From an uncultured Candidatus Saccharibacteria bacterium (GTDB lineage: Bacteria > Patescibacteriota > Minisyncoccia > Phycocordibacterales > DATDWN01), in assembly GCA_964576615.1 (NCBI GenBank), contig CAZNUU010000005.1:1-50484 (forward strand): 50,484 nt of DNA, read 5' to 3'. Both the position numbers and the translations under genes were made by a program. Numbering within the stretch: position 1 is the stretch's first letter; the number at the start of each line of letters is the position of its first letter. The notes beneath the pieces were generated by a model. It had not been told where the DNA came from and ran no database searches. It was given only the letters and a program-made list of their open reading frames with translations. This document shows positions 224 through 42,000 of the stretch, piece after piece.

Positions 224-529
224 CTACTGGAAGTAACGAGACTCGACCGCAATTTCAATACAACGATCGATCTCTGCTTTACCTGCGCGCCAGCCGAGAA
301 TGAACGTCTTGGAGAAATACTGGTAACGATACGGCGCGATGTAGTTATCATCGAAACCGTACTGATACCCGCGTTCCCATTCCGCCATCGCCAGGGCCGG
401 AGGCAAGGTCGTGTCTCCCACCGGACACCCCTCGTTGTGAAAACGGTTGTGTGTCATAGGTGGTCCGAGCGGGCAATCCGCCGGGCGCCCGCAGTACTCA
501 CATCTCTTGCTCCCTTCGCTCTGGGCCAT
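224..529 (-). CDS. GC-rich small protein with Cys/His cluster and RMF-like C-terminal motif
   Basis: GGAGG at 536-540 lies 6 nt before the ATG at 529. Contains CEYC..C..H..C and ERGYQYG..PY..GWRAG. Confidence 0.6.
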   Translation of the reverse strand: MAQSEGSKRCEYCGRPADCPLGPPMTHNRFHNEGCPVGDTTLPPALAMAEWERGYQYGFDDNYIAPYRYQYFSKTFILGWRAGKAEIDRCIEIAVESRYFQ

Positions 530-676
530 AGCCATCCTCCTGTGTTAACACAGAAGAATGAACTAGACCTGTTCCAGTTTTCTTCTGTGATTTAATAAAT
601 CTATTACAGATAGTATCACACTAAAATTAGCGTGTCAAATAATACTGACTGTGTAAAATCAAAATTATTTCAAACC

Positions 677-1105
677 TTATTTTTTCGGATCAAACTCAAT
701 AATCCACTCAATACCGTATTTGTCTCTAAACATGCCGGCTACTGTCCCCCATGGACTATCACCAATTGGTCCCTCTACTTGTCCTCCGGCAGAAAGCCCA
801 TTGAATATTTTCTCAGCTTCTTCCTTACTGCCCGCTCCCACGTAGATTTTGCTTCGATTCTCATTCTCGCTTACTTTCCCCATAAACTCTGGCACATCGT
901 TTCCTATCAGCATGTTGGAACCAACTATAGGTAAAATAATCTGCATAATTTTGTTCTCTTCTTTTTCTGAGACTGTAAACTCTGAACTTGCAAGATCTTT
1001 GAAACGAATTACTTTTGTAAACTCACCGCCAAAGACAGACTTGTAAAAATTAAAAGCTTCTTCGGCATTGCCATTAAAATTAATCCAAGGGTTTATTGTC
1101 GTCAT
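677..1105 (-). CDS. VOC/PhnB-like (glyoxalase superfamily) protein
   Basis: MTTINPWINFNGNAEEAFNFYKSVFGG...GMFRDKYGIEWII. Start moved to 1105 because TATAAT lies 6 nt upstream. Confidence 0.85.
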   Translation of the reverse strand: MTTINPWINFNGNAEEAFNFYKSVFGGEFTKVIRFKDLASSEFTVSEKEENKIMQIILPIVGSNMLIGNDVPEFMGKVSENENRSKIYVGAGSKEEAEKIFNGLSAGGQVEGPIGDSPWGTVAGMFRDKYGIEWIIEFDPKK

Positions 1106-1128
1106 AAGTTTATTATACGATATTTTTG

Positions 1129-1154
1129 CTGCCCGTTTGATTTGAGTTGGGGCT
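1129..1154 (+). repeat. Degenerate copy of the putative cassette recombination site
   Basis: CTGCCCGTTTGATTTGAGTTGGGGCT aligns with the 3641 copy (about 20/27, one gap) and lies 4 bp after the IMPase stop. Confidence 0.45.
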
Positions 1155-1158
1155 TTGA

Positions 1159-1944
1159 TCAAATCTTACAAGTTCGAACAATTTTCAATATTTCATCATG
1201 CATAATCCCGTTAGATATAATGCACCCGATACCGCCTTCATCATACCTCCTTTCTTCTCCATTTAAGTCCGTAACTTTTCCACCAGCTTCTTCAGTAATA
1301 ATCTTTAAAGCAGCAACATCATGTCCATGCTCCTTAAAATATACGGCTCCAACATATTTACCATTAGCAACTTGAATTCCACCGTAAATAAAAGAAGGGA
1401 ATTTCATTACTGCACACTTCATTTCACTTAATGTCTTAATAAGTAGCATGTTTGAAAAACCAATCGATCTCCCAGAAGCGGCAGTATTGAAATATGTATT
1501 TTTAAAAGTAGTAGTACTTGGTACAGATATTTTTTTACCATTTCTATATGCACCATTGCCTTTGTAAGCCCAATACATATTTTTCATAACGGGATCGTTC
1601 ACAATCCCTAATACTGGTAAGCCGTTCGATTGATCCACTAATGCCAAAGAAAAGACAAATGTTGGTAAACCACAAGCAAAAGCCATGGTCCCATCAATCG
1701 GATCGCAAACCCAAATATATTTTGAATTTTCCTTTATTTTGCTCCCTTCTTCACCGTAAATACTATGTTCGGGGTAAGTTTCATTTACTCTTTTAATAAT
1801 TAAATCATTTATTTCAGTATCTGCCTTTGTTAACGGTGTATCGTCTCCTTTCCAAGTAGTTTCAGTTTCAAAACTAAAATATTTCAAAGCTATTTCTTCA
1901 GCCTCTTTTGCTAATTTCTTTGCAAACTCTAGGTATTCTTCCAT
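1159..1944 (-). CDS. Inositol monophosphatase family protein
   Basis: D..TKAD..I, IYGEE and WVCDPIDGT motifs, plus C-terminal DVAA...I..EAGG.VTD. Confidence 0.9.
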   Translation of the reverse strand: MEEYLEFAKKLAKEAEEIALKYFSFETETTWKGDDTPLTKADTEINDLIIKRVNETYPEHSIYGEEGSKIKENSKYIWVCDPIDGTMAFACGLPTFVFSLALVDQSNGLPVLGIVNDPVMKNMYWAYKGNGAYRNGKKISVPSTTTFKNTYFNTAASGRSIGFSNMLLIKTLSEMKCAVMKFPSFIYGGIQVANGKYVGAVYFKEHGHDVAALKIITEEAGGKVTDLNGEERRYDEGGIGCIISNGIMHDEILKIVRTCKI

Positions 1945-2015
1945 AATTAGATTATATCAAAAGTGTTAGCTGACTGTTTGGTATTAAACAGGTTTGTTTT
2001 ACCTTACCCAACCTA

Positions 2016-2507
2016 TTACATCTGAGATTTAATTTCTAAAGCTTTCTCCATTATATGATCCCCCACAATGCCCCAATCAAAATATTTTTTATAATCCTGG
2101 GGATCAATTAGTTCAATCTTTGTCACTTCTCCCCCGTCTGGGTCACCCACAAATGGACCGTATGGTTCAACAATACAAACAGATCGAGTCTGACTAATTA
2201 CTCTGGTCGGTTCAAATACTTCTTGAAAACCCACAAAACGTTGTTTTAAGACTTTCATATTAGTCTCTTCTTTTACTTCCCTCGTCACCGCCCCCTCTAT
2301 GCTTTCGTCTAACTCTCTGCCTCCCCCAGGCGGAGCCCAATACCCTTTTTTATCAGAATAAACCACAACTAATTTATTTCCGCAGAAACAATACGCATGT
2401 ACTCCGCTCACCTCTCCTTCTTTTATTTCTGATTCACTATCAATATCACGATAAAGAACAGGTAAAACCTGCCCCGATCTATTTGTGAGTGTTGATTTTA
2501 TTTCCAT
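2016..2507 (-). CDS. NUDIX hydrolase
   Basis: Nudix box GGGRELDESIEGAVTREVKEETN. Confidence 0.85.
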   Translation of the reverse strand: MEIKSTLTNRSGQVLPVLYRDIDSESEIKEGEVSGVHAYCFCGNKLVVVYSDKKGYWAPPGGGRELDESIEGAVTREVKEETNMKVLKQRFVGFQEVFEPTRVISQTRSVCIVEPYGPFVGDPDGGEVTKIELIDPQDYKKYFDWGIVGDHIMEKALEIKSQM

Positions 2508-2514
2508 TTTTTAA

Positions 2515-3063
2515 CTATTCTAAAACATAATCCCAGCCGGGTTTCCAGGAGTGAGTCTTTCTCCAATCTTCTGCGAGAGCTTGCTCCCATGTCTGCCCCT
2601 TGAGCAATACATCCATTGCGAGCTGGGGTGCTTTGTGACTAACAATAGCAACTCGTTTACCATCATAATTTTCCTTTAGAAATTTGAGAAAATCAGCAAT
2701 TCGTTCCTTCACATCATCGTAACTCTCACCATTTGGAAATGGCTTATGAAGCATCTCACCTTCTTGAAGCGGTTCAACAACATCTGATGATGCTCCATTT
2801 AGATCGCCATAGTTGCACTCCCGCAGTCTTGCATCCACAACAATGGGGTACATATCACCCCATGCAAATTTTGCTGAATCAATTGCCCGCTTTAGATCTG
2901 AAACAAACACCACATCAAATGTTTTGTCTTTAGTTTGATCTTTCAACAGTATTGACTGCTGGACACCCTTCTCTGAAAGTTCCACGTCCTTCCAACCCGA
3001 CGAGAGATGCTCCTCGTTGTCTGTAGTTGTACCATGCGCAAAGTTTGTGATGTTGATTGACAT
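2515..3063 (-). CDS. Histidine phosphatase (phosphoglycerate mutase-like) family
   Basis: AHG (a variant of RHG), SDLKRA, LRECNYGDL.G, FPNGES and IVSH motifs. Confidence 0.85.
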   Translation of the reverse strand: MSINITNFAHGTTTDNEEHLSSGWKDVELSEKGVQQSILLKDQTKDKTFDVVFVSDLKRAIDSAKFAWGDMYPIVVDARLRECNYGDLNGASSDVVEPLQEGEMLHKPFPNGESYDDVKERIADFLKFLKENYDGKRVAIVSHKAPQLAMDVLLKGQTWEQALAEDWRKTHSWKPGWDYVLE

Positions 3064-3073
3064 AAATTTATAC

Positions 3074-3613
3074 CTAATTTAATAAATTATCGAGTGTTTT
3101 TTCAAGTTCAAGTGATAAATTGTGACCACCATCGTATTCTATAACATTAACGCCCTTTGAGTGCAGGAACTCAACTGCCTCATCATCACAGAAAAAATTG
3201 TCCAGTTTCCCACGAACCACAATCAATTTATCTCTTGGAATAGAGCCGAGAGTCTGAGCAAAATCTGTGCCAAGTAATTTTACACAGCGTGCAAGCTCAA
3301 TGAAAAACTTAAAGGGATTTACTGTAAATCCTTGTCTCTCTAAAAAGGGACCTTCGGTTGTTATATATCTAAACCAGCACAAAAACCAAGCAAAGAGACT
3401 TCTTTTAGGTAGAGGTGGATTAACTAGGATAATTCTTCCTTGAATATACTTGATATCCCTCAAGACAACCATCGCACCCAGACTAACACCAATCACATAA
3501 TCAGCATTACTTGGATATTCGTCCAATTTTCCATAACAAATATCTAAGTCATGATTATCTTCATAGAATCTGATAAAAGTCATCCATCCTGGTAATACAA
3601 GTACTTTTTTCAT
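3074..3613 (-). CDS. Alpha/beta hydrolase-like protein
   Basis: LPGW near the N-terminus, GVSLG nucleophile elbow and C-terminal GGHN. Confidence 0.55.
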   Translation of the reverse strand: MKKVLVLPGWMTFIRFYEDNHDLDICYGKLDEYPSNADYVIGVSLGAMVVLRDIKYIQGRIILVNPPLPKRSLFAWFLCWFRYITTEGPFLERQGFTVNPFKFFIELARCVKLLGTDFAQTLGSIPRDKLIVVRGKLDNFFCDDEAVEFLHSKGVNVIEYDGGHNLSLELEKTLDNLLN

Positions 3614-3640
3614 TTTAATTCTATAGGATTCCAGAAGCTG

Positions 3641-3666
3641 CTGTCCGTTTGGTACGACGTTGGAAC
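3641..3666 (+). repeat. Putative cassette recombination site
   Basis: CTGTCCGTTTGGTACGACGTTGGAAC overlaps the stop codon (3666) of the 603-aa gene. Confidence 0.6.
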
Positions 3667-5477
3667 TAAATTAAACTCCTTGAATTTTCCCAATCAACGC
3701 CATCTAGTGCAGAAATAGAACCTATTGGTGGTGGAGTTATTTCCACTTCAGGACCTCTACCAAAACCCATTGTATAATAATATTTTCCATTTCTATAATC
3801 CATGCAATCTGGTAAGAGGGCTTCTCTCATTGGTGTACCATCTACCATTTTTTCATCATTATCAATTTGCGGTTTTAGATCAACATACAACAATCTTCTC
3901 ATTCTTTCTGCTTGTTCTCCAGCCCAACCCCTTCTTTGCCCATTATCTCCAACCAGACAAAAACCGATAAAATCTAGGTACGTTTTTAAGACCATTGGAT
4001 AGTACTTACCCAAAACATTTTTTCCAATTTGTTCCCAAATTCTATCTTCAAAAGGTTTAACGTAACCTTCTTTTAATGCAGGTTCGTAAACTATACCGTG
4101 CAATAAGTCGAGAACATGATTGTACCTATCATTTGTTTTTTTAATAACTGATAGTTGCTCAAAGGCTTTATATAAAGCTCCAGCAATAGCTGAATTGATT
4201 GTTGTATCAGAAAAAAATCCCGCAGTTTGAGCAGTCTTTTCTCTGTTTGTTACATCAACATTCAATACTTCCTCACGTCCTATAAATAAATAATCATGTC
4301 CAAAAAAATGTGCTATGCGATGCAATGACCACCAACTACTCGTTAAAGTTGCGGTATTTTCTCCCATCTCATCTTTTTCAAGTTGTGTATTGGAACAAAG
4401 CTCCCCAAAAATATTACTCAAATGTTCGATTCCTCTGTTTATGTTTCGTGCGGGAATATTTCCTGTTTTGAGATATGTTTCTATAGACCTCGACATTGAC
4501 TCAATAAAAACATTTACCGTTGAATCGCTGGTACTGCCTTTCGCCGAGAAACTTACGGTTGGATAACCAAAAATATCAAAGTTGGCTAAAATTTCAGGAG
4601 AATTAAACAAGCTATCGTACAAATTAGCTGAAAGAGCCAAACCACTGTCATCTAATTGTCTATAGAGAAAAGAATCTGAATCAAAAAATAACCCTCTAAC
4701 TAATAACGGCACCCCTTTTGGCGTATCCCTTTGATCAACCTTATATTTTTTTAAAACTTCAATTATATACAACAATCCATCAAGTCTATAAGTGGATAAA
4801 AGCTTTACCATTGACCCCTCGCTTAAGAGAACATCCAAAATATTTCTTGCATCATTACCAGTTTTAGATCTATCTTCTGTCGCACACTTACATATCCTAT
4901 CAAAATTTTCTAGAAGAACATTTAAAACTAAATTAACATTATCGCCATTAGGCCGTGATATTTCCCAATGTAAAATTTCATAAAACTTACGAGAAGTTTT
5001 TTTATTGAATAAACCTTTATTAGTAGCTCTTGTAAAAAGAAAAATTATTGAGAATATGATTGATGAACATGCAAACATTTGCCAAAAAACTGATAGTTGA
5101 ATTATATTTTGAGGTTTAGTAAAAAATTTTAAAAAAAATAGAGATGAGAAAATTGAGAAAATTATTCCTAGTGAATTAAACGTAATTACAGTTGGTATAA
5201 TATAACTTCTAATTTTTAATGCTAAATTCCATTTTTCCTTTTTAAAAAGGTATACGGCAAATAAGATTGCTAGAGCGGATAAGGCTTCTCCTGTCGAGAA
5301 AAAAATGGGTGGATTCTCGGGATTATAACTTTGAGAATTGAAAAAAGTTAAGTTGTTAAATAAGGATTGAAAGCTCTGATAGTTTATTGAAGGAGAAATA
5401 ATAAAAACCAGTATAGCTACACTTGCGATAAAAAATAGAAAATCTCTTAACGTGTATTTTTCTGGGTCTTCAGTCAT
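3666..5477 (-). CDS. Hypothetical membrane protein (about 4 N-terminal TM helices plus large soluble domain)
   Basis: 603-aa ORF with hydrophobic N-terminal segments and a very AT-rich 5' part. No family recognised. Confidence 0.7.
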   Translation of the reverse strand: MTEDPEKYTLRDFLFFIASVAILVFIISPSINYQSFQSLFNNLTFFNSQSYNPENPPIFFSTGEALSALAILFAVYLFKKEKWNLALKIRSYIIPTVITFNSLGIIFSIFSSLFFLKFFTKPQNIIQLSVFWQMFACSSIIFSIIFLFTRATNKGLFNKKTSRKFYEILHWEISRPNGDNVNLVLNVLLENFDRICKCATEDRSKTGNDARNILDVLLSEGSMVKLLSTYRLDGLLYIIEVLKKYKVDQRDTPKGVPLLVRGLFFDSDSFLYRQLDDSGLALSANLYDSLFNSPEILANFDIFGYPTVSFSAKGSTSDSTVNVFIESMSRSIETYLKTGNIPARNINRGIEHLSNIFGELCSNTQLEKDEMGENTATLTSSWWSLHRIAHFFGHDYLFIGREEVLNVDVTNREKTAQTAGFFSDTTINSAIAGALYKAFEQLSVIKKTNDRYNHVLDLLHGIVYEPALKEGYVKPFEDRIWEQIGKNVLGKYYPMVLKTYLDFIGFCLVGDNGQRRGWAGEQAERMRRLLYVDLKPQIDNDEKMVDGTPMREALLPDCMDYRNGKYYYTMGFGRGPEVEITPPPIGSISALDGVDWENSRSLI

Positions 5478-5517
5478 AAGTAATTATTTTTGCAATTATA
5501 ACACAAAAATAACTACT

Positions 5518-5928
5518 TTACAATAAGTTTCCTATTACAAAATGAGACGTTATTTGCTTTATGGATTCTGAAAAATTAGTCCCAACATTTATAAACTCTG
5601 ATGGGATTTTTGCATCATCAAATATCTGCCTAACCCTCTCGTCTCTTTCTATTCGATCTTGTCGTTGATGAGATTTTCCATTTAACTCTATCGCAACTTT
5701 TGGTTCAAAATTCTTGTTGCATATAAGAAAATCTATATGTTTTGGTAAAACCTCATTCCTTCTTCCATAATAACCCTTTCCATGTAGAGGATAAACGATA
5801 TCTGCAATTCTCATTTTTGGGAAAATATAATATTCAGTAGGTATTTGATTTTTAAGTTCAAAGAAAAAAGCTGCTTCACTTTGATTCATTACCGAATTCT
5901 TTTTTGCATAACTCGCACGATTAGACAC
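5518..5928 (-). CDS. DUF2726 domain protein (N-terminus possibly truncated)
   Basis: MNQSEAAFFFEL..IFPKMRIADI..KHIDFLIC..AIELNGKSH..RDERV. The frame stays open up to 6027 and encodes a TM helix that has no ATG. Confidence 0.75.
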   Translation of the reverse strand: MSNRASYAKKNSVMNQSEAAFFFELKNQIPTEYYIFPKMRIADIVYPLHGKGYYGRRNEVLPKHIDFLICNKNFEPKVAIELNGKSHQRQDRIERDERVRQIFDDAKIPSEFINVGTNFSESIKQITSHFVIGNLL

Positions 5929-6027
5929 ACCCCTAGGATCGACCGGAAATTTTACTTCTAGATACAGAGCAACTGCAACCCCTATGATAATTATTATGAA
6001 TACAATTATGGACCTGGTCTTTGCTTT

Positions 6028-6053
6028 CTAGGATTGTAGGGTGAAATTGGAAC
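6028..6053 (+). repeat. Degenerate copy of the putative cassette recombination site
   Basis: CTAGGATTGTAGGGTGAAATTGGAAC has the same length as the other copies and ends 1 bp before the VOC stop at 6055. Confidence 0.4.
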
Positions 6054-6054
6054 T

Positions 6055-6483
6055 TTAACTCATTATATTTCTAGTCCCTAAATTTTGGAAGAACCTTAGG
6101 AGATAGCCATCTGGATCTTGGATTAGAAACTGTCTGTTGCCAACTTCTTGTATATCTTTGCGATACCATTTTTCCTCCATATCAAAAAATACTGGGTGTT
6201 TGCTATCTTTAATTCTTTTGTATAGGGCATCTACATCATCTACTTCTATCTGAAAGTTTATTCCTTGGCCCAGAGGGTATTTTCTTTCCCCCACTTTCCA
6301 CCTGTCTTCTGATTCTAAAAGTTCTATCATTAACCTGGCGCCATCTTTATCTAACATCGCGAATTTTTCCTCTGGTCTTTGATATAAAATATCAAATCCG
6401 AGAATGTGCGTATAAAAAAGCAAACTTTTTTCAAAATTACTTACTTTGAATTCAGGAATTAATTTGGGTGTGATATTTGGCAT
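6055..6483 (-). CDS. VOC/bleomycin-resistance family protein
   Basis: LIPEFKVSNFEKSLLFY..LGF...RQFLIQDPDGYLLRF. Confidence 0.85.
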   Translation of the reverse strand: MPNITPKLIPEFKVSNFEKSLLFYTHILGFDILYQRPEEKFAMLDKDGARLMIELLESEDRWKVGERKYPLGQGINFQIEVDDVDALYKRIKDSKHPVFFDMEEKWYRKDIQEVGNRQFLIQDPDGYLLRFFQNLGTRNIMS

Positions 6484-6507
6484 ATTATGCTATAAGGCTT
6501 GGCGTCT

Positions 6508-6759
6508 TTACGGCTTAGAGACATTAATTAAACCAAGTTTCTTTTCTCTCCGCCAACCCTTGATTTCTGTTTCCCTTCTTCTCGCTTCGATTAAAGTGCT
6601 AAATTTTTCCGAGTACAATAAAATTACTGGTCTTCTAATCTTTGTATAATGTGCACCCGACTTTGAACTATTATGCTGTTCGATTCTTCTCTCTAAATTA
6701 TTTGTACAACCAACATTCAAAGATTTATCTGAACATTTGAGTATATACGTAAAATACAT
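6508..6759 (-). CDS. Stand-alone GIY-YIG nuclease
   Basis: YFTYILKC..LNVGCTNNLERRIEQHN..YTKIRRPV.L.YSE..A.RRE.EIKGWRREKK. Confidence 0.9.
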   Translation of the reverse strand: MYFTYILKCSDKSLNVGCTNNLERRIEQHNSSKSGAHYTKIRRPVILLYSEKFSTLIEARRRETEIKGWRREKKLGLINVSKP

Positions 6760-6786
6760 AAAATAAATATTACCACTTATTCATTT

Positions 6787-6866
6787 CGCCACCTCTTCGC
6801 TACGCTCATTCGGTGTCTTCGTCGCTAAAGGGCCGAAGGCTCTGAGGAGCTTCGGGCGACGAAGAG
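6787..6866. repeat. REP-like multi-hairpin element upstream of GIY-YIG gene
   Basis: TCTTCGTCGC (6816-6825) pairs with GCGACGAAGA (6856-6865), with an inner CCGAAG/CTTCGG stem. Also contains CGCTACGCTCATT (6798-6810). Confidence 0.6.
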
Positions 6867-6892
6867 CTGTCCATCGTAAACGAAGTTAGAAC
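6867..6892 (+). repeat. Putative cassette recombination site
   Basis: CTGTCCATCGTAAACGAAGTTAGAAC has the same length and the same CTGTCC..ACGA.GTT.GAAC frame as the 3641 copy. Confidence 0.6.
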
Positions 6893-6995
6893 CATTATAC
6901 TACAAGGTAAAACTCTCTTTGCCCTCAAAGCACCTTTAAGTGAAGTAGCCTAATTTACCCCACCCCTGTTTTACCTATTTAATTTTTATATTTTT

Positions 6996-7421
6996 ATGGA
7001 GAAACACGACCTTGATACAAAGTTTGGAGACACACGAGCTGTTATAGCAGGATTGGCAGAACTTTTAGATACTGTGTACAAAGAGCCATATCCTGTTTTT
7101 ACAAAAAGAGAAGCTTTCTTTCTAGCTGATTTACTTTTTACTAAAGATAAAGATTTACTACTTTTTTATATTGCGGACTTTATGGCTGATAATTTTCACG
7201 AAGGAGTACGTGTATTTGCAAATGGAGCTTCCTATAGAAGACTTGAGTTTTATAAGCAATTTTGGATTACAAAAGGTAATGCAACCAAAGCGGCTATACA
7301 ATGTGGTTATAGCCCCAAATCAGCCAAACAACAAGGTCACAGAATGCTTAGATGGATACAAAGAATTACTATGCAAGATACTGGTGAAAATACACCACTC
7401 TCAGGCTTTAAAGGTCATTAA
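6996..7421 (+). CDS. Hypothetical protein with C-terminal terminase small subunit-like HTH
   Basis: FYKQFWITKGNATKAAIQCGYSPKSAKQQGHRML resembles the TerS N-terminal NAT.AA..AGYS..A motif. Confidence 0.55.
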   Translation: MEKHDLDTKFGDTRAVIAGLAELLDTVYKEPYPVFTKREAFFLADLLFTKDKDLLLFYIADFMADNFHEGVRVFANGASYRRLEFYKQFWITKGNATKAAIQCGYSPKSAKQQGHRMLRWIQRITMQDTGENTPLSGFKGH

Positions 7422-7441
7422 AAGTAAACATTTTTAGTGAG

Positions 7442-7852
7442 TTATCCTTGAAAGTTCACTTGAAACCGATACATTCCCATTCCACAAGTGCCTTGCAAAG
7501 TTCCAAGTTGTGAGTTGCCTATGTCAATATCAGTATTTCCTGATTGCGGAAGTATTTTTGATATATTCATACTTGGAATACGAACTGACACTGAACAATC
7601 AAAAGTCCCGTTGGTATTAAATCTAATAACTGTCGGCATACCTGCTTTTGCAGTACTTGTTTGTGGTCTATAGCCACCCTTAACATTTATTTCTACAATC
7701 TGCTTGCCATCAACAACACTTACATTGTTTACATCTACTGGAGTGAAGTTTGCAGAGGACGTATTGGTATTATTTTGTGAGCTTCCTCTTGAGAACAGAA
7801 AAATGCCTCCGATAATGAGAACTATAACTAAAGCTATAATGGTGTTTTTCAT
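7442..7852 (-). CDS. Cupredoxin domain protein with N-terminal TM helix
   Basis: GGY.P...AKAG.P and C-terminal GTCGMGMYR motif, next to a copper ATPase. Confidence 0.75.
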   Translation of the reverse strand: MKNTIIALVIVLIIGGIFLFSRGSSQNNTNTSSANFTPVDVNNVSVVDGKQIVEINVKGGYRPQTSTAKAGMPTVIRFNTNGTFDCSVSVRIPSMNISKILPQSGNTDIDIGNSQLGTLQGTCGMGMYRFQVNFQG

Positions 7853-7856
7853 GTAT

Positions 7857-8891
7857 TTAGAAGTTAAAGACTGGAGGTATTACTCCAATCACTACAAGAC
7901 TATTAATGATATTGAACAAAGCAAACATAATAACGACAAGACCTGCTGTCTTGAAGAAAATACCCGCTTTTGAACTGTTTTGAATGCTGAACGAACTAAA
8001 ACTGATAAGAGCAAGAACTGGTAATGTACCGAAAGCAAATGAAAGCATGGTCAATCCTCCCTTGAGGAAACTGCCTGTGGTAAGAGTATATAACTGCATT
8101 GATTGAGTAAAACCGCATGGTAGAAAAAACGTAGCAATTCCCACAAGAAGTGGTGTGAGTGTGTGATTAAATTTAGAAACTCCCAAAGCATGCTTAGAGA
8201 GAAACTTTGGCATTGATGGTTGCAATTTTTTCGCCCACGGGAACACATCCAATAGATTAATTCCAAGAATGAGCATCACAATACCGATGAACAAACTTAA
8301 TACGAATGTTGCATTGGTATTAAGTGTAAATGCAGAACCAATCGCTCCAACCACACCACCGAGAACAAAGAACGATATAATACGACCTCCATGAAAGAGA
8401 AGTTGCGGTTTTATTTTGTCTCCTTCTTTAGCAAATGTTGCTGACATTGAAAGTAATAGACCACCAACGACAGCCATGCACGTAGAGAGCGATGCGATGA
8501 TGCCTATCACAAAAGCAGTTCCATATGAGACGTTACCTCCATGCACTAGATTTACTAGTCCTAATTTTTGAAGAACAACAAACAAAATTCCAAAGCCAAT
8601 AGCTATGGGAAGGGCATATATGAAGTCGGTCCATTTTTTCTCCTTAGTAACTTTTTCTGTTGAGAGACTGTAACCATGTTTGAGTAATACCTGTGTGAGT
8701 TCTTCTGCAATACTTTCTTTTGATTTATCACCAAAATTTCCAGTTATTTCAACTGAATGAGTATGCAGACTTGATTTCGCCTTTGTGACATATGAGACTT
8801 CTTCTAACTCACTTTCAGTTAGAAGTATACACGCATTGCAGTGCATACCAGCAATGTGAAATGTATGTGTTTTTAGTATTTGGGTATTCAT
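7857..8891 (-). CDS. HMA domain plus sulfite exporter TauE/DsbD_2-type membrane protein
   Basis: GMHCNAC metal-binding motif, then SLSTCMAVVGG and FFLPCGFTQ. Confidence 0.85.
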   Translation of the reverse strand: MNTQILKTHTFHIAGMHCNACILLTESELEEVSYVTKAKSSLHTHSVEITGNFGDKSKESIAEELTQVLLKHGYSLSTEKVTKEKKWTDFIYALPIAIGFGILFVVLQKLGLVNLVHGGNVSYGTAFVIGIIASLSTCMAVVGGLLLSMSATFAKEGDKIKPQLLFHGGRIISFFVLGGVVGAIGSAFTLNTNATFVLSLFIGIVMLILGINLLDVFPWAKKLQPSMPKFLSKHALGVSKFNHTLTPLLVGIATFFLPCGFTQSMQLYTLTTGSFLKGGLTMLSFAFGTLPVLALISFSSFSIQNSSKAGIFFKTAGLVVIMFALFNIINSLVVIGVIPPVFNF

Positions 8892-8892
8892 G

Positions 8893-11190
8893 TTAGTTTA
8901 GTTTTTTAGTCTTCAATCTCAGTGAATTCGAGACAACAGAAACACTTGAGAGTGCCATTGCAAAACCTGCAAATACTGGAGAAAGTAACCAACCAAATAT
9001 TGGATAGAACAAACCTCCTGCAAGTGGAATGCCAACAATGTTGTAGATGAATGCCCAAAAGAGATTTTGCTTGATACCTCTCATAGTCATTTTTGAAAGA
9101 TATATTGCTTTAACTAACTTTGAAATATCTCCGTGCAAAAGCGTAATTCCAGCACTTTCAATTGCCACATCAGTTCCAGTTGCCATAGCGATACCGACAT
9201 CTGCTTGCGCAAGTGCTGGAGCATCATTTACTCCATCACCTGCCATAGCAACAATTTCTCCATGAGATTGTAATTCTTTGATTTTATCGAGTTTATCCTC
9301 TGGCAATACTTCCGCAACTACCTCATCAATACCAACTTGTTTTGCAATATGTCGTGCGGTATTTACATCATCCCCAGTAAGCATGACAATTTTTATTCCT
9401 AGTTTATGAAGACGAGAAATTGCTTCTATTGCCACTGGTTTTACTGCATCAGCGACCATGACAACCCCAAGCACTTTTTCTTTTGTTGCTAATACAACAG
9501 GAGTTTTACCCTCACTCGTTTCTTTCTCAATTGATTTTGTATCCAATGAGAGATTAAGATCACCGATAAGTTTTATATTCCCAGCAAAATACTCTGTCCC
9601 TGAAATTACTCCTTTCAATCCTTTGCCTTTAATTGCTTCAAAATGTTCTACCGATATTGTTGCAATACCTTTTTCTTTGCTGTAGGAGACGATAGCATCG
9701 GCAATAGGATGTTCTGATTTCTTTTCAAGTGATGAAAGAATTGAGACAAGTTCATCATCACTTTTTGTTGATAAGTTTTGTATTGAGACAAGTTCAGGTT
9801 TTCCTCGGGTCAACGTTCCCGTTTTGTCCACCACGATTGTTGTAACTTTGTGTAATTTCTCCAGTGTGCTTGCATCTTTTATAAGTATTCCTTCTTTTGC
9901 TCCTTTTCCAACCCCCACGATGATTGCTGTAGGTGTTGCAAGACCCAATGCACATGGGCAAGCAATGACAAGAATACCGACAAAGGAAACTAAACCAAAT
10001 GATAGAGCCTGAGAAAGACCGAGATACTGAGTTCCGAGAAGAAGCCATGTGCCAAGAGAAAGAAAAGCTAAGACCAAAACTATCGGCACAAAAACACTTG
10101 AGATTTTATCTGCTAACGCCTGTATCGGAGCACGACTTCCTTGGGCTTCTTCCACCATTTTGACGATATGAGCAAGCATTGTTTCAGAACCGACTTTAGT
10201 AGCTTTGAACGTAAATGAACCTGAGGTATTTAGTGTTCCCGAAACAACACTGTCACCTACATTCTTTTGCACTGGTATAGGCTCACCTGTAATCATTGCC
10301 TCATCAACATATGATGAACCTTCGGTTACAATTCCATCAACAGGGATTTTTCCTGCTGGTTTTACGATAATTAAATCACCATGCATCACTTGTTCAATCG
10401 GTATTTCAATTTCTTTTCCATCTTTTATAACTAGAGCGGTTTTAGCTTGTAGATTGAGAAGTTTCTCTATAGCATCTCCAGTTTTAAGTTTTGAGCGTGC
10501 TTCAAGATATTTTCCGAGAGCGATGAATGTTATGACAACAATGGTCACGTCATAGTATGTATGGTCAACATTGATGAGTGGTCTCAGTGTTTCTTCAAAA
10601 GCAGTAATGATAAAGCTATAGAGAAATGCCACCGATGTACCAATGCCTATGAGAGTATCCATGTTTGCTTTGCCGTATCGTATGAAGCGATAGAAACCTA
10701 GAAGGTACGGTTTACCAACAACAAAGAGCGTATAGGTGGCAAATATAGGTAATAAATGATGGAAGAACTCGCTCCAAATGTACGGCATAACTGGAGCTAT
10801 TTTGAATTGAATTAAAATATCCCACGCCATGACAAAGATACTGAAAACAGCAAGTGGCAGTGCAGAAAATACTTTGTTACGCATATCTTTAATTTCTGCC
10901 AACTTTTCAGATTTTGATTGGTTAAGTCCTAAATGCTGAGCATGTTCACTTTCTGACATTCCCATTTCTTCTGCTGTTGGAAGAACAATTGAATACCCGA
11001 GTGGTTCAATTTTCTCTGAGAGATGATGAGGGCTTGTCTTCATCTCATCAAATGAGAGTTTGGCTTTTTCAGTTCCATAATTTACTTCCACAGAATGAAC
11101 ACCGTCTGTCTTTTTGAGTGTTTTTTCTATGATGCTTGCACAGGAAGCACAATGCATTCCTTTTATTTGATATGTATTAGATTGGGTCAT
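8893..11190 (-). CDS. copA: Copper-translocating P1B-type ATPase
   Basis: [41 protein letters not shown] and MALSS motifs. Confidence 0.92.
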
Positions 11191-11260
11191 ATGTGTTACT
11201 AGCTGATAAGAAAAGTCTACGACAAAATTGTGTCGTATAAAACATCAAATAGGGAGGAAC

Positions 11261-11677
11261 TTAAAAAAGCTTTGGGTTAAGAATGCCGTTTGAGAAAAGT
11301 TCTTGGAAAGAATGGGTCAGAGGTATGTATTTTGAATACTCACCAAAATTAGGTTGTGTGAATAGATTTCTTGGAGGAGAAAATAACCGTTTAATCCAAA
11401 AGACAAACAATACTACAGAAACTAGGAGTAGAATAAGAAGAGTTATATTTTGAGATGGAATACTTGTAAAAAAACTTTGCCACATAGAAATATGTTCAAA
11501 GGGAGACATCTTACAAATGACACCTCCAATCATAAACGGGCAATCCTCCACAGACATTTTTCCGTCCATCCCCATATTCATATTGAAGTGAGATAGACCA
11601 AAGACACCAAGAAATAGGAAAGATATGAAGGCAAAAATAAGGAATGATTTAGCTATATTATTCAGTGTAATTAACAT
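11261..11677 (-). CDS. Small Met/Cys/His-rich membrane protein upstream of copA
   Basis: Two TM segments around HFNMNMGMDGKM..DCPFM..IC.M..FEH. Start set at 11677 because TATACT lies 7 nt upstream. Confidence 0.6.
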   Translation of the reverse strand: MLITLNNIAKSFLIFAFISFLFLGVFGLSHFNMNMGMDGKMSVEDCPFMIGGVICKMSPFEHISMWQSFFTSIPSQNITLLILLLVSVVLFVFWIKRLFSPPRNLFTQPNFGEYSKYIPLTHSFQELFSNGILNPKLF

Positions 11678-11826
11678 TAAATATAGTATACCAAAAAATG
11701 ATAATAAAGAAAAATCACCCAATGGGTGATTTTTCTTCTTGAATACTGCTCTCAGCAGGTATGCGGTGGCGGAATAGATACTCGCTCGTTATCGACGCGT
11801 CTCGAGCGCGATAACCTAGCACGAGT

Positions 11827-11900
11827 TGGCTGCGGGACTTGGGCTCGAACCAAGATAAACGGTTCCAGAAACCGTTGTCCTACCATTAGACGATCCCGCA
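11827..11900 (-). tRNA. tRNA-Gln(CTG), CCA encoded
   Basis: Cloverleaf with TGCGGGA/TCCCGCA acceptor, anticodon arm ACGGT-TTCTGGA-ACCGT and TTCGAGC T-loop. Confidence 0.95.
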
Positions 11901-18258: not shown

Positions 18259-19755
18259 ATGCCAATCAACATCAAACAAAAGATCTCATCATTACTGGTC
18301 GCTTTAACAATCATCTTATGCCTCGCCACTGCTGCACCTGTTTTTGCCACAAGCCCATCTGTTTCCATTGGACCTCTCAACCCAGGCAACTCTGTAAATG
18401 TGGGCACAGAAGTTTTTTTTACCGCAACCGCAAATAACTTCAGCGGAGGTGAAACGTACACCGTAAGCGATTCGTTTGGAGGAACAACTGTATCCAATAG
18501 TGATTTCAACAGCTCAGGGGTTTTTGTCTGGATTCCAGTAACCGGCGATGCGGGAACACATAACTTGACCGTGACAGTGACTGATTCACTCGGAGTCAGC
18601 GCTTCAGCATCTGTCCAAATAGTAGTAATTGGACCACCTACTGTCACTATCCAATCGCTTTCCCCGAGTTCATCTGTCACATCTGGCACAAACCTCTCCT
18701 TTTCGGCTGTTACTTCAGGATTTACTAACCCTGTCTTTACCTTAAGCGATTCATTTTTCAATTCTACGGTCTCAAACACTATGATTAATTCTTCGGGATT
18801 TTTTAGTTGGACTCCGAACCAGAGAGATACAGGGAGTCACAACATTAGTGTTTATGTAAACGATTCTTTGGGCCACAATGCATCGGTAACTCAGACAATT
18901 ACGGTGACTTCCAGTGCAAGCCTATCAATACAATCAATATTTCCGAGTACAAGTATAGTTACTGGGCAGAATTTATCATTCACTGTAGTACCCACAGGAT
19001 TAAGCAACCCGACATATACGATAAGCGATTCGTTTGGCGGAAGTAGTATTTCCAGCTCTAACTTAGATTCAGCTGGTAATTTTAATTGGAAACCAGTTTA
19101 TGGGGATTCTGGAACACATACATTCACCATCTCAGCTAGCGATTCATCAAGTAATAGCGCAAGTGTCAGCCTAACAGTCTTGGTTTCGGGAGTTTCCGGA
19201 ACGGCAAGTATTACCGTTTCAACCCCCTCTCCTGGCACATCGGTTAAACAAGGAACTGCAGTTTCATTTTCTACTTATACATATGGCTTCACTAATCCAA
19301 CATTTTCATTGGTTGATTCATTTGGGAGCACAAGCATCGCGAACAGTAATATAAACTCTAATGGTTACTTCAGTTGGATTCCAAAAACCACCGACATCGG
19401 TACACACGTTATTATCGTCGCTGCTAATGACCTCTACGGACACTCAGCAAGCTCTAGTACCCAAATAATAGTCAACAACCAGACGACAAGTACTACCACA
19501 ACTACAACTACAAACACTTCATCCTCCACTATTCACATTTTTGCAATCTATCTCTACCCAGGAATGACCTCAAGTGAAGTGACCGCCCTACAAAAAGTCC
19601 TAACTAAACTAGGTTACTTCTCTGGACCTCAATCAGGTTATTTCGGGCCTATGACCAAAGCCTCGGTAATAAAACTTCAGAAATCTCACGGATTAAATCC
19701 GCTAGGTGTGGTTGGTCCAGCAACACGAGCTCTCTTAAATCAGCTACAGAAATAA
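18259..19755 (+). CDS. Secreted protein with four Ig-like repeats and a C-terminal peptidoglycan-binding domain
   Basis: Signal peptide, 4x about 97-aa S/T-rich repeat (SDSF..S....NS.G.F.W.P...D.GTH), Thr linker and V..LQ..L..LGY...GYFGP.T..V..LQ. Confidence 0.85.
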   Translation: MPINIKQKISSLLVALTIILCLATAAPVFATSPSVSIGPLNPGNSVNVGTEVFFTATANNFSGGETYTVSDSFGGTTVSNSDFNSSGVFVWIPVTGDAGTHNLTVTVTDSLGVSASASVQIVVIGPPTVTIQSLSPSSSVTSGTNLSFSAVTSGFTNPVFTLSDSFFNSTVSNTMINSSGFFSWTPNQRDTGSHNISVYVNDSLGHNASVTQTITVTSSASLSIQSIFPSTSIVTGQNLSFTVVPTGLSNPTYTISDSFGGSSISSSNLDSAGNFNWKPVYGDSGTHTFTISASDSSSNSASVSLTVLVSGVSGTASITVSTPSPGTSVKQGTAVSFSTYTYGFTNPTFSLVDSFGSTSIANSNINSNGYFSWIPKTTDIGTHVIIVAANDLYGHSASSSTQIIVNNQTTSTTTTTTTNTSSSTIHIFAIYLYPGMTSSEVTALQKVLTKLGYFSGPQSGYFGPMTKASVIKLQKSHGLNPLGVVGPATRALLNQLQK

Positions 19756-19761: not shown

Positions 19762-19962
19762 TTAAGCAGCCTCAAATCTAACTCTATTTTCGGTCATCCA
19801 CCTTTCCTGTTCTGATTTCTGCTCCTCTGGGGTTAGTCCTGCTTTACCTTTCATTACATCAGCATGTGTCTGCATATAATGAGGCATAAGTGCTTGCATC
19901 CATTCTTCAAAAGTCTCGCCTTGCGCTGTTACTTCACAGAGATCACATTTAAGTGTTTTCAT
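19762..19962 (-). CDS. Small DUF1059-like metal-binding protein
   Basis: MKTLKCDLC...GETFEEWM....HY...H. Confidence 0.6.
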   Translation of the reverse strand: MKTLKCDLCEVTAQGETFEEWMQALMPHYMQTHADVMKGKAGLTPEEQKSEQERWMTENRVRFEAA

Positions 19963-20005
19963 CTTTGTTTAATTGTTACTAATACTTTAGAGCATTATTA
20001 TAACA

Positions 20006-20308
20006 CTAACCGATTCTCAGTTTTTCTGCTTCTTGGAACATCCTTTCGGCTAATCCATTATCCCTTTCTAGCAGGGCTTGGTCTCGCGCATCTAAAAAAG
20101 CCTCATACGCCTCATATAGCATTCCTGCCTCCTTTAAAATATCAGCTTTTTCTATATTTAAATTCAAATAATCTCTACTGTTTCTGAAAGTTCTCTCCTT
20201 TTCATCCATATACCTAACAAGCGTGCTGACATCTTCCGGATTTCTGCGCAAGGATTCCACTACCAACTCCCTTGTTATTGCTTCTCCGTTAGGAATTCCT
20301 TCGGTCAT
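20006..20308 (-). CDS. Hypothetical helical protein
   Basis: Start MTEG at 20308 with TATACT 6 nt upstream. Confidence 0.6.
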   Translation of the reverse strand: MTEGIPNGEAITRELVVESLRRNPEDVSTLVRYMDEKERTFRNSRDYLNLNIEKADILKEAGMLYEAYEAFLDARDQALLERDNGLAERMFQEAEKLRIG

Positions 20309-20329
20309 ATTATGAGTATAACAAATTAT

Positions 20330-20356
20330 GCGCGAGTGACCGGACGATGTTAGAAC
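20330..20356 (+). repeat. Hybrid att-like site A (tRNA-Asp 3' end plus motif)
   Basis: GCGCGAGTGACCGGAC is identical to 22072-22087 and is fused to GATGTTAGAAC. Confidence 0.8.
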
Positions 20357-20385
20357 AAAGATGAAACAGAATCCGGAATTCGTTT

Positions 20386-20745
20386 TTATTCCAGGTCTCG
20401 AATAATCTCTGTATCGAACCACTGTTCCTGGAAGTGAATCGCCTTGGCAATCTCCTCATCGGTCATTGTCACATCCTTCGGAACAACGATTAGTTTGTCA
20501 TCGTCATTATCCTTGCGATGTGCAATAGCAATACAAACACCCTCTGCCTCATCAAGTGGCTTATCGACGCCCAAATAATAGGCGTCTAAATCTTCACCAT
20601 CGGGTGCTTTTATGCTTTCAATAAAGCCGTAATTAACTTCGTACAAGAAGCCATGTTTGGGATGTTTCGAGCCAAGTGGCCGATCCATTTTTACCTTTAC
20701 GGCTTTACCAAGGAATCCTCGTGCAATTTCAAGCGACTGTGACAT
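20386..20745 (-). CDS. Inorganic pyrophosphatase family (short form)
   Basis: DRPLGSKHP..Y..NYG.I...APDGEDLDAY..DDDKL motifs. Confidence 0.8.
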   Translation of the reverse strand: MSQSLEIARGFLGKAVKVKMDRPLGSKHPKHGFLYEVNYGFIESIKAPDGEDLDAYYLGVDKPLDEAEGVCIAIAHRKDNDDDKLIVVPKDVTMTDEEIAKAIHFQEQWFDTEIIRDLE

Positions 20746-20810
20746 CTCATTATTCTAATAAAATGACCGCCTTTCGGGTAGTCATTTTTGAACCGATCTA
20801 CGGTTATTTT

Positions 20811-20836
20811 GCGCGACTAGTGGATGATGTTAGAAC
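20811..20836 (+). repeat. att-like site B
   Basis: GCGCGACTAGTGGATGATGTTAGAAC, 14 bp from the next stop codon (20850). Confidence 0.7.
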
Positions 20837-20849
20837 AGAGATAATAAAT

Positions 20850-21623
20850 CTAACTACTAATCACATCCTTCTTTGTTTTGGTAAGGTAAATTACTGTGAT
20901 AGCTATCGACAGTAGGAAAATAAAACTTGTAGTGGTGGTACCTAGTCCCAAACCACCGTCGTCATGAGACTGAGAAAGATAATCCCCAATAGAAGCACCG
21001 AGTGGACGAGTTAGTATATAGGCAACCCAGAAAGACCAGACAGGACTTAGATTAATTTTTTTATATGCAAAGTAAACAACCCCAATAGCCACTGCGAAAA
21101 TAATTAATGAAAGTAAGTAACCTAAATTCATAGTTTCTGCAATTAAATCCCCTGCTGCTGTGCCTAAGGCAAAAGTGAAAAGTATTGCTATCCAATAAAA
21201 CACCTCCCTTTTTGTTGTAAAGATAGAATGGATAGAGAGAGTTTTCTCTTTTGCATACCAAATGAAAAAAGTGATTGCTAAAGCAATTGCAAAAATCACA
21301 GTGGTTGTTACAAGGGAGACTCCAAAATTATCTGTGAGATTATCTGTAATGAGTGTGCCCACAACACTAATAAGAACAACAGCAAGCCAGTAGATAGATG
21401 GTATATATTTTCTAGATTTGAATTGAAAGATTAACACGATTATTAGAAAAATTCCCATAACCACAGACGTCCCAGTCAATCCCAGATTAAGATTTGTATT
21501 TAGATAATCGGCAAATGTCTCCCCAACTGTCGTGCACAGTATTTTTATAATCCAGAAATACAGAGTAATTTCTGGAACCTTATTTAACATTTGTTTACTA
21601 AAATCTTTCGTCTCTTGGTTCAT
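20850..21623 (-). CDS. COG4705/DUF347-type repeat membrane protein
   Basis: KVPEITLYFWIIKILCTTVGETFAD..FYWIAILFTFALGTAAGD..YILTRPLGASIGD. Confidence 0.85.
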   Translation of the reverse strand: MNQETKDFSKQMLNKVPEITLYFWIIKILCTTVGETFADYLNTNLNLGLTGTSVVMGIFLIIVLIFQFKSRKYIPSIYWLAVVLISVVGTLITDNLTDNFGVSLVTTTVIFAIALAITFFIWYAKEKTLSIHSIFTTKREVFYWIAILFTFALGTAAGDLIAETMNLGYLLSLIIFAVAIGVVYFAYKKINLSPVWSFWVAYILTRPLGASIGDYLSQSHDDGGLGLGTTTTSFIFLLSIAITVIYLTKTKKDVISS

Positions 21624-21643
21624 GATTAAATTGTAACACGGCC

Positions 21644-21670
21644 GCGCAACCTGGTGGACGATGTTAGAAC
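21644..21670 (+). repeat. att-like site C
   Basis: GCGCAACCTGGTGGACGATGTTAGAAC, same 27-nt length as site A. Confidence 0.7.
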
Positions 21671-21699
21671 TAAGATAATTATTGGAATTAAAAACAACA

Positions 21700-21884: not shown

Positions 21885-21916
21885 GTGACCTCCAGATTTA
21901 TATTAACACAAATTTT

Positions 21917-41995: not shown

Positions 41996-42000
41996 TTATT

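Follow-up and report, generated by a model that had tools for sequence, protein, structure and literature searches.

A probable accretion island behind tRNA-Gln, seamed by a conserved family of 33-bp tRNA-like sites, in a bacterium of the candidate phyla radiation

Introduction

What brought together the accessory genes at the left of this locus, and what are the short repeats that lie between them? The stretch analysed here (the window; 50,484 nt, contig CAZNUU010000005.1) is a chromosomal piece of low GC content (~39%) that carries type IV pilus genes, LigA, GatCAB, RF2 and FtsEX. It belongs to the candidate phyla radiation (CPR), bacteria with tiny genomes and few recognised mobile elements, in which the acquisition of accessory genes is poorly understood. 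An earlier note, made from the sequence alone, had pointed to a motif recurring at 1129–6892, in a block where every gene lies on the minus strand, and had read the block as an older, cassette-type array, a companion to one behind tRNA-Asp and perhaps anchored at tRNA-Gln. We found that the motif belongs to a conserved family of 33-nt sites tied to tRNA-Gln, and that the region from ~644 to 11826 is probably an accretion island anchored at this tRNA gene, with attP-type half-sites as its seams and a large serine recombinase (LSR) as the most likely recombinase.

Results

A conserved family of 33-nt sites

The 26-nt pattern first described occurs exactly only at 3641–3666 and 6867–6892, on the plus strand as written, so that the minus strand is the sense strand; two copies were observed where 0.03 were expected by chance. 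Position models were built from relatives only, with the window excluded, and the window was then scored with them (position weight matrix, nhmmer and gapped alignment). The relatives, cited here by number, were metagenome contigs and FtsX-anchored loci from GTDB genomes; the latter assign the window to Candidatus Zambryskibacteria/Paceibacterota, and L002 is the closest of them (FtsX 81% identical). The copy at 3640–3672 (site B3) reached 41.7 bits (nhmmer E=3.6e-7) and that at 6866–6898 (site B1) 22.2 bits (E=0.004), which confirmed both as real and highly significant.

The motif proved to be longer than first reported. It spans 33 nt, with an A-rich 5′ part in which the stop codon of the preceding gene is often found, and has the family consensus A[AT]AA[AT][AG]GTTCCAACnTCGT[AC]CCAnACGGCCAGC, given on the gene-sense (minus) strand as A[AT]AA[AT][AG]GTTCCAAC[TAG]TCGT[AC]CCA[GC]ACGG[CT]CAGC. 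With nhmmer, 212 sites were found in 120 loci of related Paceibacterota, comprising metagenome contigs and genome loci. A regular-expression and hidden Markov model search of 80 FtsX-anchored loci from GTDB genomes detected the site in many of the relatives and revealed two flavours: Gln-type sites end in ...ACCAGACGGTCAGC, and Asp-type sites, to which the window sites at 21644, 20810 and 20330 belong, end in ...TCCACTAGGTCGCGC. Both share the 5′ module GTTCYAACnTCGT, whereas the last 16 nt differ and follow the respective tRNA. The left copies had been taken for the same motif as the tRNA-Asp sites; this holds for the 5′ module, but over the last 16 nt they are a sister flavour only. When metagenome contigs were scanned with a degenerate Gln-type pattern of 27 nt, 105 of them matched, where ~0.2 chance matches were estimated.

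The sequence logo of 166 non-redundant sites has sharp edges, with zero information right after ...CAGC and right before position 1. In this logo the search pattern had partly determined positions 7–33 of one site in each contig; it had no bearing on the invariant A at position 1 or on the sharp 3′ edge. Between arrays whose genes are alike only at the protein level, the sites are the sole DNA that can still be aligned, indicating that they are maintained and not simply decaying.

The three weaker copies fared differently when scored against the null. Taken as a full site, 1969–1983 does not rise above background: it scores 5.3 bits where the null reaches ~5.9, and its gapped score falls in the top 2.4% of windows. 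Its 3′ half, TACCAAACAGTCAGC, however, matches the 3′ half of the site better than any other stretch of the window (20.1–22.3 bits, against null maxima with a 95th percentile of 16.9 and a maximum of 21.9 in 200 simulations). It is a real 3′ half-site, in agreement with the half copy reported at 1970. The 3′ half of the 1129 copy scores 7.8–9.6 bits, which is background; its gapped score lies in the top 0.3% of windows, and ~19 of 28 positions of 1128–1154 agree with the consensus with one gap allowed, which is suggestive only of a site. At 6028 the full-site score is negative, the 5′ half is about at the null maximum and the gapped score is in the top 2.4%, again background. Scoring thus upheld 3641, 6867 and the half-site at 1970, and left the degenerate copies at 1129 and 6028 at or near the level of chance. 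All copies are co-oriented with the tRNA-Asp sites, and their surroundings are as the earlier note had them. Minus-strand stop codons lie within 0–4 bp at 1129, 3641 and 6028 (that of the 3666–5477 open reading frame (ORF) overlaps the motif, the VOC stop at 6055–6057 is 1 bp off and the IMPase stop at 1159–1161 is 4 bp off), and −10 boxes are close by at 1129, 1970 and 3641.

About 26 nt upstream of the weak 3′ halves at 1128–1142 and 1969–1983 there are stretches like the 5′ half of the site, AAAATTGTTCGAACTTGTA within the part that encodes the IMPase C-terminus and TAATAGGTTGG beyond the stop codon of NUDIX (1170–1188 and 1995–2015, minus strand). Sites with a 21-nt internal insertion occur in L036. 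The two pairs in the window may be split sites, a resemblance that is not significant by score.

Several other identities of the motif were considered and rejected. The CTGTCC half reads GGACAG in the sense direction and is −35-like, as in a promoter element; its spacing to the −10 box varies from 13 to 20 nt, and the best-conserved part of the site lies at about −45 to −60. The stretch GTTCTAAC resembles an integron core site (RYYYAAC/GTTRRRY), yet it has one base too many and no inverse partner. A tRNA-like fold, T-arm or minihelix would need a complementary 5′ strand, which is missing; the sites had no match in Rfam, and RNAalifold on 25 sites with their flanks gave 0 conserved pairs. A small hairpin, CGTC-CCA-GACG, showed no compensatory changes. 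Scans of IMG/VR with both flavours returned nothing or chance coding matches in GC-rich contigs, and an LSR query found only 23%-identical relatives there.

Linkage of the sites to tRNA genes

tRNA-Gln and a Gln-type site occur together in 39 related loci, and there every one of the 60 sites is downstream of the tRNA gene and has the same orientation as this gene (p ~3e-24). Loci with several sites are uniformly oriented (43/43), and in loci with tRNA-Gln the median distance between the end of the tRNA and the first site is 815 nt. Loci with tRNA-Gln inverted relative to FtsX (L009, L013 and L016) obey the same rule of position and orientation. These data strongly support tRNA-Gln as the anchor of the left array, and the guess made from sequence was right: the window holds a second array-like accessory region anchored at tRNA-Gln. 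The antisense strand of tRNA-Gln does contain GCTG and GAACCAAGAT, the likeness from which that guess had started.

The sister flavour behaves alike. L012 and L060 have Asp-type sites behind tRNA-Asp; in L026 and L033 such sites stand in the corresponding cluster of tRNA genes, between GatA and RF2. In the window, site A1 (21917–21950) carries an exact 19-nt copy of the tRNA-Asp 3′ end, and the site at 20330–20362 is a hybrid of the 5′ module of the site with the exact tRNA-Asp 3′ end. Downstream of Asp-type sites, an extended −10 box (TGTTAYAAT/TGTTATACT) comes within ~10 nt, and an ATG only 5–15 nt after the box; such boxes lie at 20300–20330, 21625–21645 and 21890–21915 of the window and also in L012, L026 and L002. 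It thus seems that every unit has a promoter of its own and a very short leader. When the tRNA-Asp array (window 19762–22146) was compared with L002 (798–2640), the pyrophosphatase-like unit between 20810–20842 and 20330–20362 was absent from L002, the small genes at 20006–20311 and 19762–19962 were in reversed order with a different gene between them, and the BigPG gene of the window (18259–19755) was absent.

Some tRNA-Gln genes are themselves irregular. In L037 and L048 the 5′ and 3′ acceptor strands are mismatched, and L002 (11620–11640) carries the first 10 nt (TGCGGGATCG) of the window-type tRNA-Gln, 11 nt upstream of its own, different allele. Judged from these sequences, the remnant and the mismatched stems suggest that recombination has occurred inside the tRNA gene too.

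Synteny breaks at the sites

The core gene order in relatives is LigA–GatC–GatA–tRNAs...RF2–FtsE–FtsX...tRNA-Gln. Collinearity of L002 with the window (94% identity) extends as far as the start of tRNA-Gln, and the two alleles of this gene differ. The last 4 nt of tRNA-Gln in L002 already belong to a stretch of 266 nt that is 98.5% identical to window 6869–6604. The joint reads ...CTGTCTGGCAGC|TCTTCGTCG (...GGCAGC|) in L002 and ...TTTACGATGGACAGC|TCTTCGTCG (...GGACAGC|) at B1, and the junction ...CAGC|TCTTCG is common to both. The site at 6867 occupies the exact place of the L002 tRNA 3′ end, and window 6899–11826 lies between; none of the copper-block genes in this interval is on the L002 locus. 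The break in synteny thus falls exactly at the 6867 site, as the idea of an array had implied. In other relatives, L087 is 98% identical to L136 and L171 from a site onward with different DNA upstream, and L007 and L033 diverge 4 nt after the tRNA-Gln end.

The shared 266 nt consist of a GC-rich hairpin and the 5′ part of a GIY-YIG gene. The hairpin (CTCTTCGTCGCCCGAAGC...GCGACGAAGA; window 6760–6866, minus strand) precedes this small gene, and its region has a depth of 46, against about 7, in the source metagenome (~6-fold excess). The identity of the stretch to L002 compares with 73–94% for the flanking core genes. It resembles a mobile repeat in its own right, present in multiple copies and placed immediately behind tRNA-Gln-like ends, and it may have reached the window and L002 independently; whichever way it arrived, the site and the tRNA end are equivalent junctions. 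Homologues of GIY-YIG lie near tRNA-Gln or sites in many loci.

At the far end, a promoter-like sequence, TTTGACACnCTAATTTTAGTGTGATA (TTGACA, 17 nt, TG-extended −10), gave the clue. It is strongly conserved, is directed away from the tRNA and stands directly after tRNA-Gln in L009, L011 and L034; in L007 it comes after the last site, and in the window (610–640, minus strand) after the remnant TACACAGTCAGT (655–644). The remnant itself has no score support, and it is this flank, common to tRNA-Gln ends and the window, that places the oldest junction near 644. From its sequence the array therefore appears to span from the tRNA (11826) to near 644 and not, as first described, 1129–6892. That it is the older of the two arrays is plausible, since its distal copies are decayed. 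Just past the presumed end lies a 103-aa ORF (224–535, minus strand) with no family match and a cysteine-rich N terminus, where the G+C fraction is 0.45 compared with 0.34–0.39 nearby; a hairpin sits between this ORF and the conserved promoter.

Half-site geometry and serine recombinase genes

Over the proximal 16 nt, the mean identity between site and matching tRNA is 0.59 for the Gln and 0.63 for the Asp flavour. The distal GGTTC aligns only with 5 extra bases in the site (identity 0.58/0.62 at +5 and 0.11 at shift 0), and this +5 offset relative to the tRNA is found in both flavours. LSR attB and attP sites share the region bound by the recombinase domain (RD), and the zinc ribbon domain (ZD) motif of attB is 5 bp closer to the centre than that of attP (Rutherford et al. 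2013, PMC3783163). The half-site lengths, ~21–23 bp for the tRNA end and 26–28 bp for the site, fit LSR attB and attP, and the RD-like identity together with the 5-bp offset matches the geometry of attP versus attB half-sites.

LSR genes, defined by Resolvase, Recombinase and Zn_ribbon_recom domains, were found at tRNA-Gln and at sites in relatives. In L007, L155 and L026 they are encoded on the opposite strand and directly adjoin the tRNA-Gln 3′ end, where L124 has a 51-aa LSR relic. In L179 an LSR gene stands against a site, and in L183, L134 and L167 the genes are at contig starts, 4–7 kb upstream of a site. In L026 a 133-nt LSR-proximal arm occurs in two settings, next to the tRNA-Gln end and next to a site-like arm, and the identity starts at CAGC. 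This is the pattern expected for attL and attP, which places the crossover at the last bases of the tRNA.

An LSR gene in L026 is flanked by 133-nt inverted repeats, 99% identical (13283–13415/14855–14987), and an LSR gene in L173 (1990–4504), next to tRNA-Ser, by 66-nt inverted repeats; these could be insertion-sequence-like serine-recombinase elements, invertible segments or assembly artefacts. L173 had been considered as an LSR element ending at a Gln-type site and was rejected, its real end being the 66-bp terminal inverted repeat 273 nt before the site. No terminal inverted repeats were found in the L007 and L155 elements.

Layout and cargo of the island

The coordinates of the island and its sister array are collected in Table 1. 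The cargo annotation given earlier for the left block was correct by Pfam. Units between supported sites are multi-gene, with four, three and at least two genes (3–5 by a second count). Gaps of only 7–10 nt separate the genes of block B3–B4, so that hydrolase, histidine phosphatase and NUDIX form one three-gene unit. B3 holds the TAG stop of the 603-aa ORF and is followed by a −10-like TAGAAT and the next ATG (3613). The only plus-strand ORF of the island, at 6996–7421, has a short match to a small terminase subunit family and may be a remnant of a phage-like element. Defence-system models run on the cargo gave a weak NUDIX match only, and exact-protein look-ups of window genes found no more than a 2.4-kb Logan contig, which is from the same organism. 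Elsewhere in the window, ARAGORN called a tRNA-Ser with the unusual anticodon ACT (42001–42090, plus strand), which adjoins the most GC-rich kilobase (0.52; 42000–43000) and faces an opposite-strand tRNA-Ser(GCT).

Table 1. Positions in the window of the tRNA-Gln island, its sites and genes, and the sister array
Feature	Position	Strand	Remarks
tRNA-Gln(CTG)	11827–11900	−	anchor; ARAGORN, Rfam 58.8 bits, well-paired acceptor stem
Last ~23 nt of tRNA-Gln, GGTTCGAGCCCAAGTCCCGCAGC	~11829–11851	−	read as attB-type half-site
Most tRNA-proximal inserted block	6899–11826	−	copper-resistance genes, 4.9 kb; Pfam and comparison with L002
153-aa membrane ORF	11261–11722	−	copper block
Cu-type P1B ATPase	8893–11190	−	copper block; Pfam
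DsbD_2/HMA protein	7857–8891	−	copper block; Pfam
Cupredoxin	7442–7852	−	copper block; Pfam
Terminase_2-like ORF	6996–7421	+	copper block; Terminase_2 30.9 bits, residues 89–119
Site B1	6866–6898	−	sense strand ATAATGGTTCTAACTTCGTTTACGATGGACAGC; distal junction of copper block; carries internal changes
Block B1–B3	3673–6865	−	GC-rich hairpin and four genes; Pfam
GC-rich hairpin	about 6780–6866	−	block B1–B3
GIY-YIG	6508–6759	−	block B1–B3; Pfam
VOC/glyoxalase	6055–6483	−	block B1–B3; Pfam
Reported degenerate copy B2	6028–6053	−	not separable from chance
DUF2726	5518–5928	−	block B1–B3; Pfam
603-aa protein of unknown function	3666–5477	−	block B1–B3; ORF
Site B3	3640–3672	−	sense strand AATTTAGTTCCAACGTCGTACCAAACGGACAGC; canonical Gln-type site
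Block B3–B4	1984–3639	−	three genes; Pfam, ORFs
Alpha/beta-hydrolase-like	3074–3613	−	block B3–B4; Pfam
Histidine phosphatase	2515–3063	−	block B3–B4; Pfam
NUDIX	2016–2507	−	block B3–B4; Pfam
Site B4, 3′ half-site only (TACCAAACAGTCAGC)	1969–1983	−	followed by extended −10 TGATATAAT and IMPase ATG
IMPase	1159–1944	−	Pfam
Reported degenerate copy B5	1128–1154	−	between IMPase and VOC (677–1105); unproven
VOC	677–1105	−	Pfam
Probable terminal junction	610–655	−	remnant TACACAGTCAGT (655–644), then promoter TTGACA-17-TACTAT (638–610)
Sister array behind tRNA-Asp (22072–22146)	20330–21676	−	Asp-type sites 21644–21676, 20810–20842, 20330–20362

Arrays and cargo in relatives

Some relatives carry dense arrays of 6–10 sites (10 in L122, 8 in L108 and 7 in L103), and in L108 and L122 rows of 8–10 near-identical sites stand ~350–600 nt apart. 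Between sites we counted 77 distinct units. Their median length is 595 nt, and the longest ORF covers ~80% of the unit; it is co-oriented with the sites in 58, opposite in 14 and absent in 5. Homologues of window cargo (VOC, NUDIX, GIY-YIG, the IMPase family and copper genes) adjoin sites in other arrays, with copper modules next to sites in L034, L040 and L102. IMPase homologues, 75–87% identical, stand in differing contexts across genomes. In L190, genes for IMPase, histidine phosphatase and DUF2726 are found just downstream of tRNA-Gln in a region that ends at a degenerate site. A DNA-level search found no cassette that is bounded on both sides by sites in two arrays, the genes being too diverged for such a search.

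Discussion

On the reading that we favour and consider probable, mobile DNA would have inserted repeatedly and site-specifically at the extreme 3′ end of tRNA-Gln. Each insertion would spare the tRNA, and the tRNA-like arm of the element, the 33-bp attP-type half-site, would land at the far end beside the former tRNA flank. With each new insertion the older ones would move further from the tRNA, and the later loss of recombinase genes and of most of the element DNA would leave cargo between half-sites, with seams at 6866–6898 and 3640–3672, a half-decayed one at 1969–1983 and the oldest near 644. The recombinase, most likely an LSR, would have come with some of the elements; its attB-type half-site would be the tRNA 3′ end and its attP-type half-site the 33-bp site, and the crossover would fall at ...CAGC or immediately behind it. 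That the seams in question are the work of LSRs is what we infer, together with the position of the crossover and the order of insertion. The sites may stay conserved since intact half-sites would let resident DNA excise and move together with a newly arrived element.

Several observations weigh against this model. We found no recombinase gene of any kind in the 50-kb window. The link to LSRs comes from about nine loci, one of which (L173) is a separate element, and the inverted repeat of L026 could be an assembly artefact. In the source rock metagenome, covered by low-depth Logan contigs only, no excision or circle junctions were seen, nor any joints at sites. An LSR dimer normally needs two half-sites, and the right flank of 165 sites holds no information, no inverted motif and no conserved partner half-site; in attR-type hybrids one would expect the right half-site to be missing only with a weakly specified B′ arm. 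An attL site is not a substrate by LSR rules, so repeated insertion at one tRNA needs either the loss of the earlier proximal arm or a tolerant enzyme. Rows of 8–10 near-identical sites are hard to make by insertion and decay of whole elements, and dense single-ORF rows look more like a dedicated cassette system. In addition, the stop codon of the upstream ORF falls within positions 1–6 of the site in about half of 148 site-adjacent ORFs, and a stop codon inside the site looks like a dedicated cassette format.

The last points lead to an integron-like capture platform in CPR bacteria (Paceibacterota), a possibility that we hold only tentatively. The 33-bp sites would play the part of attC and the tRNA 3′ end that of attI, and single-gene cassettes, each with its half-site, would be inserted, excised and reshuffled by LSRs that visiting elements supply in trans, independently of integron integrases, in a Gln and an Asp flavour. 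This overlaps with the favoured model and differs from it in cassette-level mobility and in the dedicated cassette format. It would explain the arrays of up to 10 co-oriented sites, the 77 short units filled largely by one ORF, the placement of stop codons, the better conservation of sites than of cassette genes, the promoter directed from the tRNA-Gln end into the array in L009, L011 and L034, and the recurrence of window-cargo homologues beside sites elsewhere. What speaks against it is that no cassette was found in two arrays with both its boundaries at sites, that no recombinase gene has a fixed position beside the arrays, that two recombining attP-type half-sites are not an LSR reaction, that the window units are multi-gene and that the site lacks a hairpin or dyad. 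The array is not an integron in the strict sense, as the defining features of one were tested and were missing: there is no intI-type tyrosine recombinase in the window or in the 120 site-bearing loci, and attC-like imperfect inverted repeats that fold as single strands were excluded by the absence of an inverted partner, of covariation and of consensus pairs. The integron-like, cassette-type reading of the window failed these tests and is unproven.

Most tRNA-integrating islands (Islander, tycheposons) use tyrosine integrases, and the same island might have been made by these or another classic tRNA-targeting recombinase, the sites being displaced and diverged tRNA 3′ fragments. The exact tRNA-Asp 3′ copy at A1, which is like a classic attR, and the mismatched acceptor stems of L037 and L048, which imply crossovers inside the tRNA, agree with this. 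We nevertheless regard it as improbable: a single 76-aa tyrosine-recombinase fragment (L037) was found in the 80 FtsX-anchored loci and the window, and none in the 120 site loci; the sites do not represent displaced, functional tRNA ends, as both flavours share the 5-nt-longer loop region and derived characters across genomes; and the tRNA keeps its own allele-specific 3′ end beside the island.

An RNA-level element, that is, a tRNA-like signal in the 3′ untranslated region for processing, stability or termination after many genes, is very improbable. Although the site starts at or within the stop of co-oriented genes and resembles the T-arm and acceptor 3′ strand of a tRNA, it showed no conserved pairs, no compensatory changes in the candidate hairpin and no Rfam match. 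Furthermore, its flavour goes with that of the tRNA gene nearby, 14 of the 77 cassettes have their longest ORF on the other strand, and sites stand at breaks in synteny and are found a few kb downstream of LSR genes. That the copies are mere chance similarities, or inert fragments of decayed tRNA pseudogenes, as the two of five reported copies at background might suggest, can hardly be entertained given two exact copies where 0.03 were expected (which refutes chance for the two strong sites), the 105 metagenome contigs, the strict tRNA-Gln linkage and the sharp-edged conserved block.

The general kind of structure is known: an island behind a tRNA gene, built by successive site-specific insertions and strewn with tRNA-like repeats. 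Islander-type tandem islands and tycheposons, like the present island, have an intact tRNA at one end and co-oriented tRNA-like repeats inside and at the far end; their newer insertions push older ones outward, as proposed here, their integrase genes are mostly lost and their cargo is adaptive (metal resistance, small-molecule enzymes). A minority of Prochlorococcus tycheposons use a large serine recombinase (bioRxiv 10.1101/2020.12.28.424599). Here, in contrast, the repeats are not partial tRNA copies but a conserved 33-bp family with 5-bp-longer spacing, and B1, B3 and B4 are diverged mimics of the tRNA-Gln end, not exact displaced fragments. The sites are also maintained better than the genes between them, dense single-gene rows occur in relatives, the host is a CPR bacterium, and the crossover seems to lie at the very tRNA end, so that no part of the tRNA needs replacement.

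Canonical LSR att sites (A118/LI, Bxb1, phiC31) likewise have a similar proximal RD part of 12–16 bp and a ZD shifted by exactly 5 bp. The present arrays differ in having one conserved half-site per array site and a tRNA 3′ end as target, and in the tandem accumulation of attP-type half-sites, which unidirectional attP×attB recombination does not predict. Integrons and clusters of attC sites lacking integron-integrases (CALINs) share with the arrays of relatives the co-oriented rows of mostly single co-oriented ORFs, a median near 600 nt and a short site after each, and CALINs and the present arrays often have no nearby recombinase gene. Unlike these systems, ours has no IntI and no folding palindromes, conserves sequence instead of structure, is anchored at a tRNA and has many units with their own −10 promoter. 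In the accretion-mobilisation of streptococcal cis-mobilizable elements (CIMEs) and integrative and conjugative elements (ICEs), recombinase-less DNA flanked by att sites stays mobilisable, because an incoming element integrates beside it and co-excises with it. The likeness to CIMEs lies in recombinase-less, att-flanked DNA open to co-mobilisation, whereas CIMEs use tyrosine integrases, full att sites and few units and have no half-site that mimics a tRNA. In the literature searched we did not find a description of a conserved attP-type half-site family that mimics a tRNA end with a 5-bp offset, nor of such half-sites kept in tandem single-gene rows or in CPR bacteria.

The sites offer a searchable, conserved 33-bp seam at tRNA-Gln, with a sister at tRNA-Asp, that marks the entry of foreign genes in over a hundred contigs, and so give a direct handle on gene flow in this CPR lineage. 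If the serine-recombinase reading is true, the island represents a natural tandem pile-up of attP-type half-sites at one attB-type half-site. If cassette-level mobility were shown, these arrays would constitute a second, independently evolved integron-like system.

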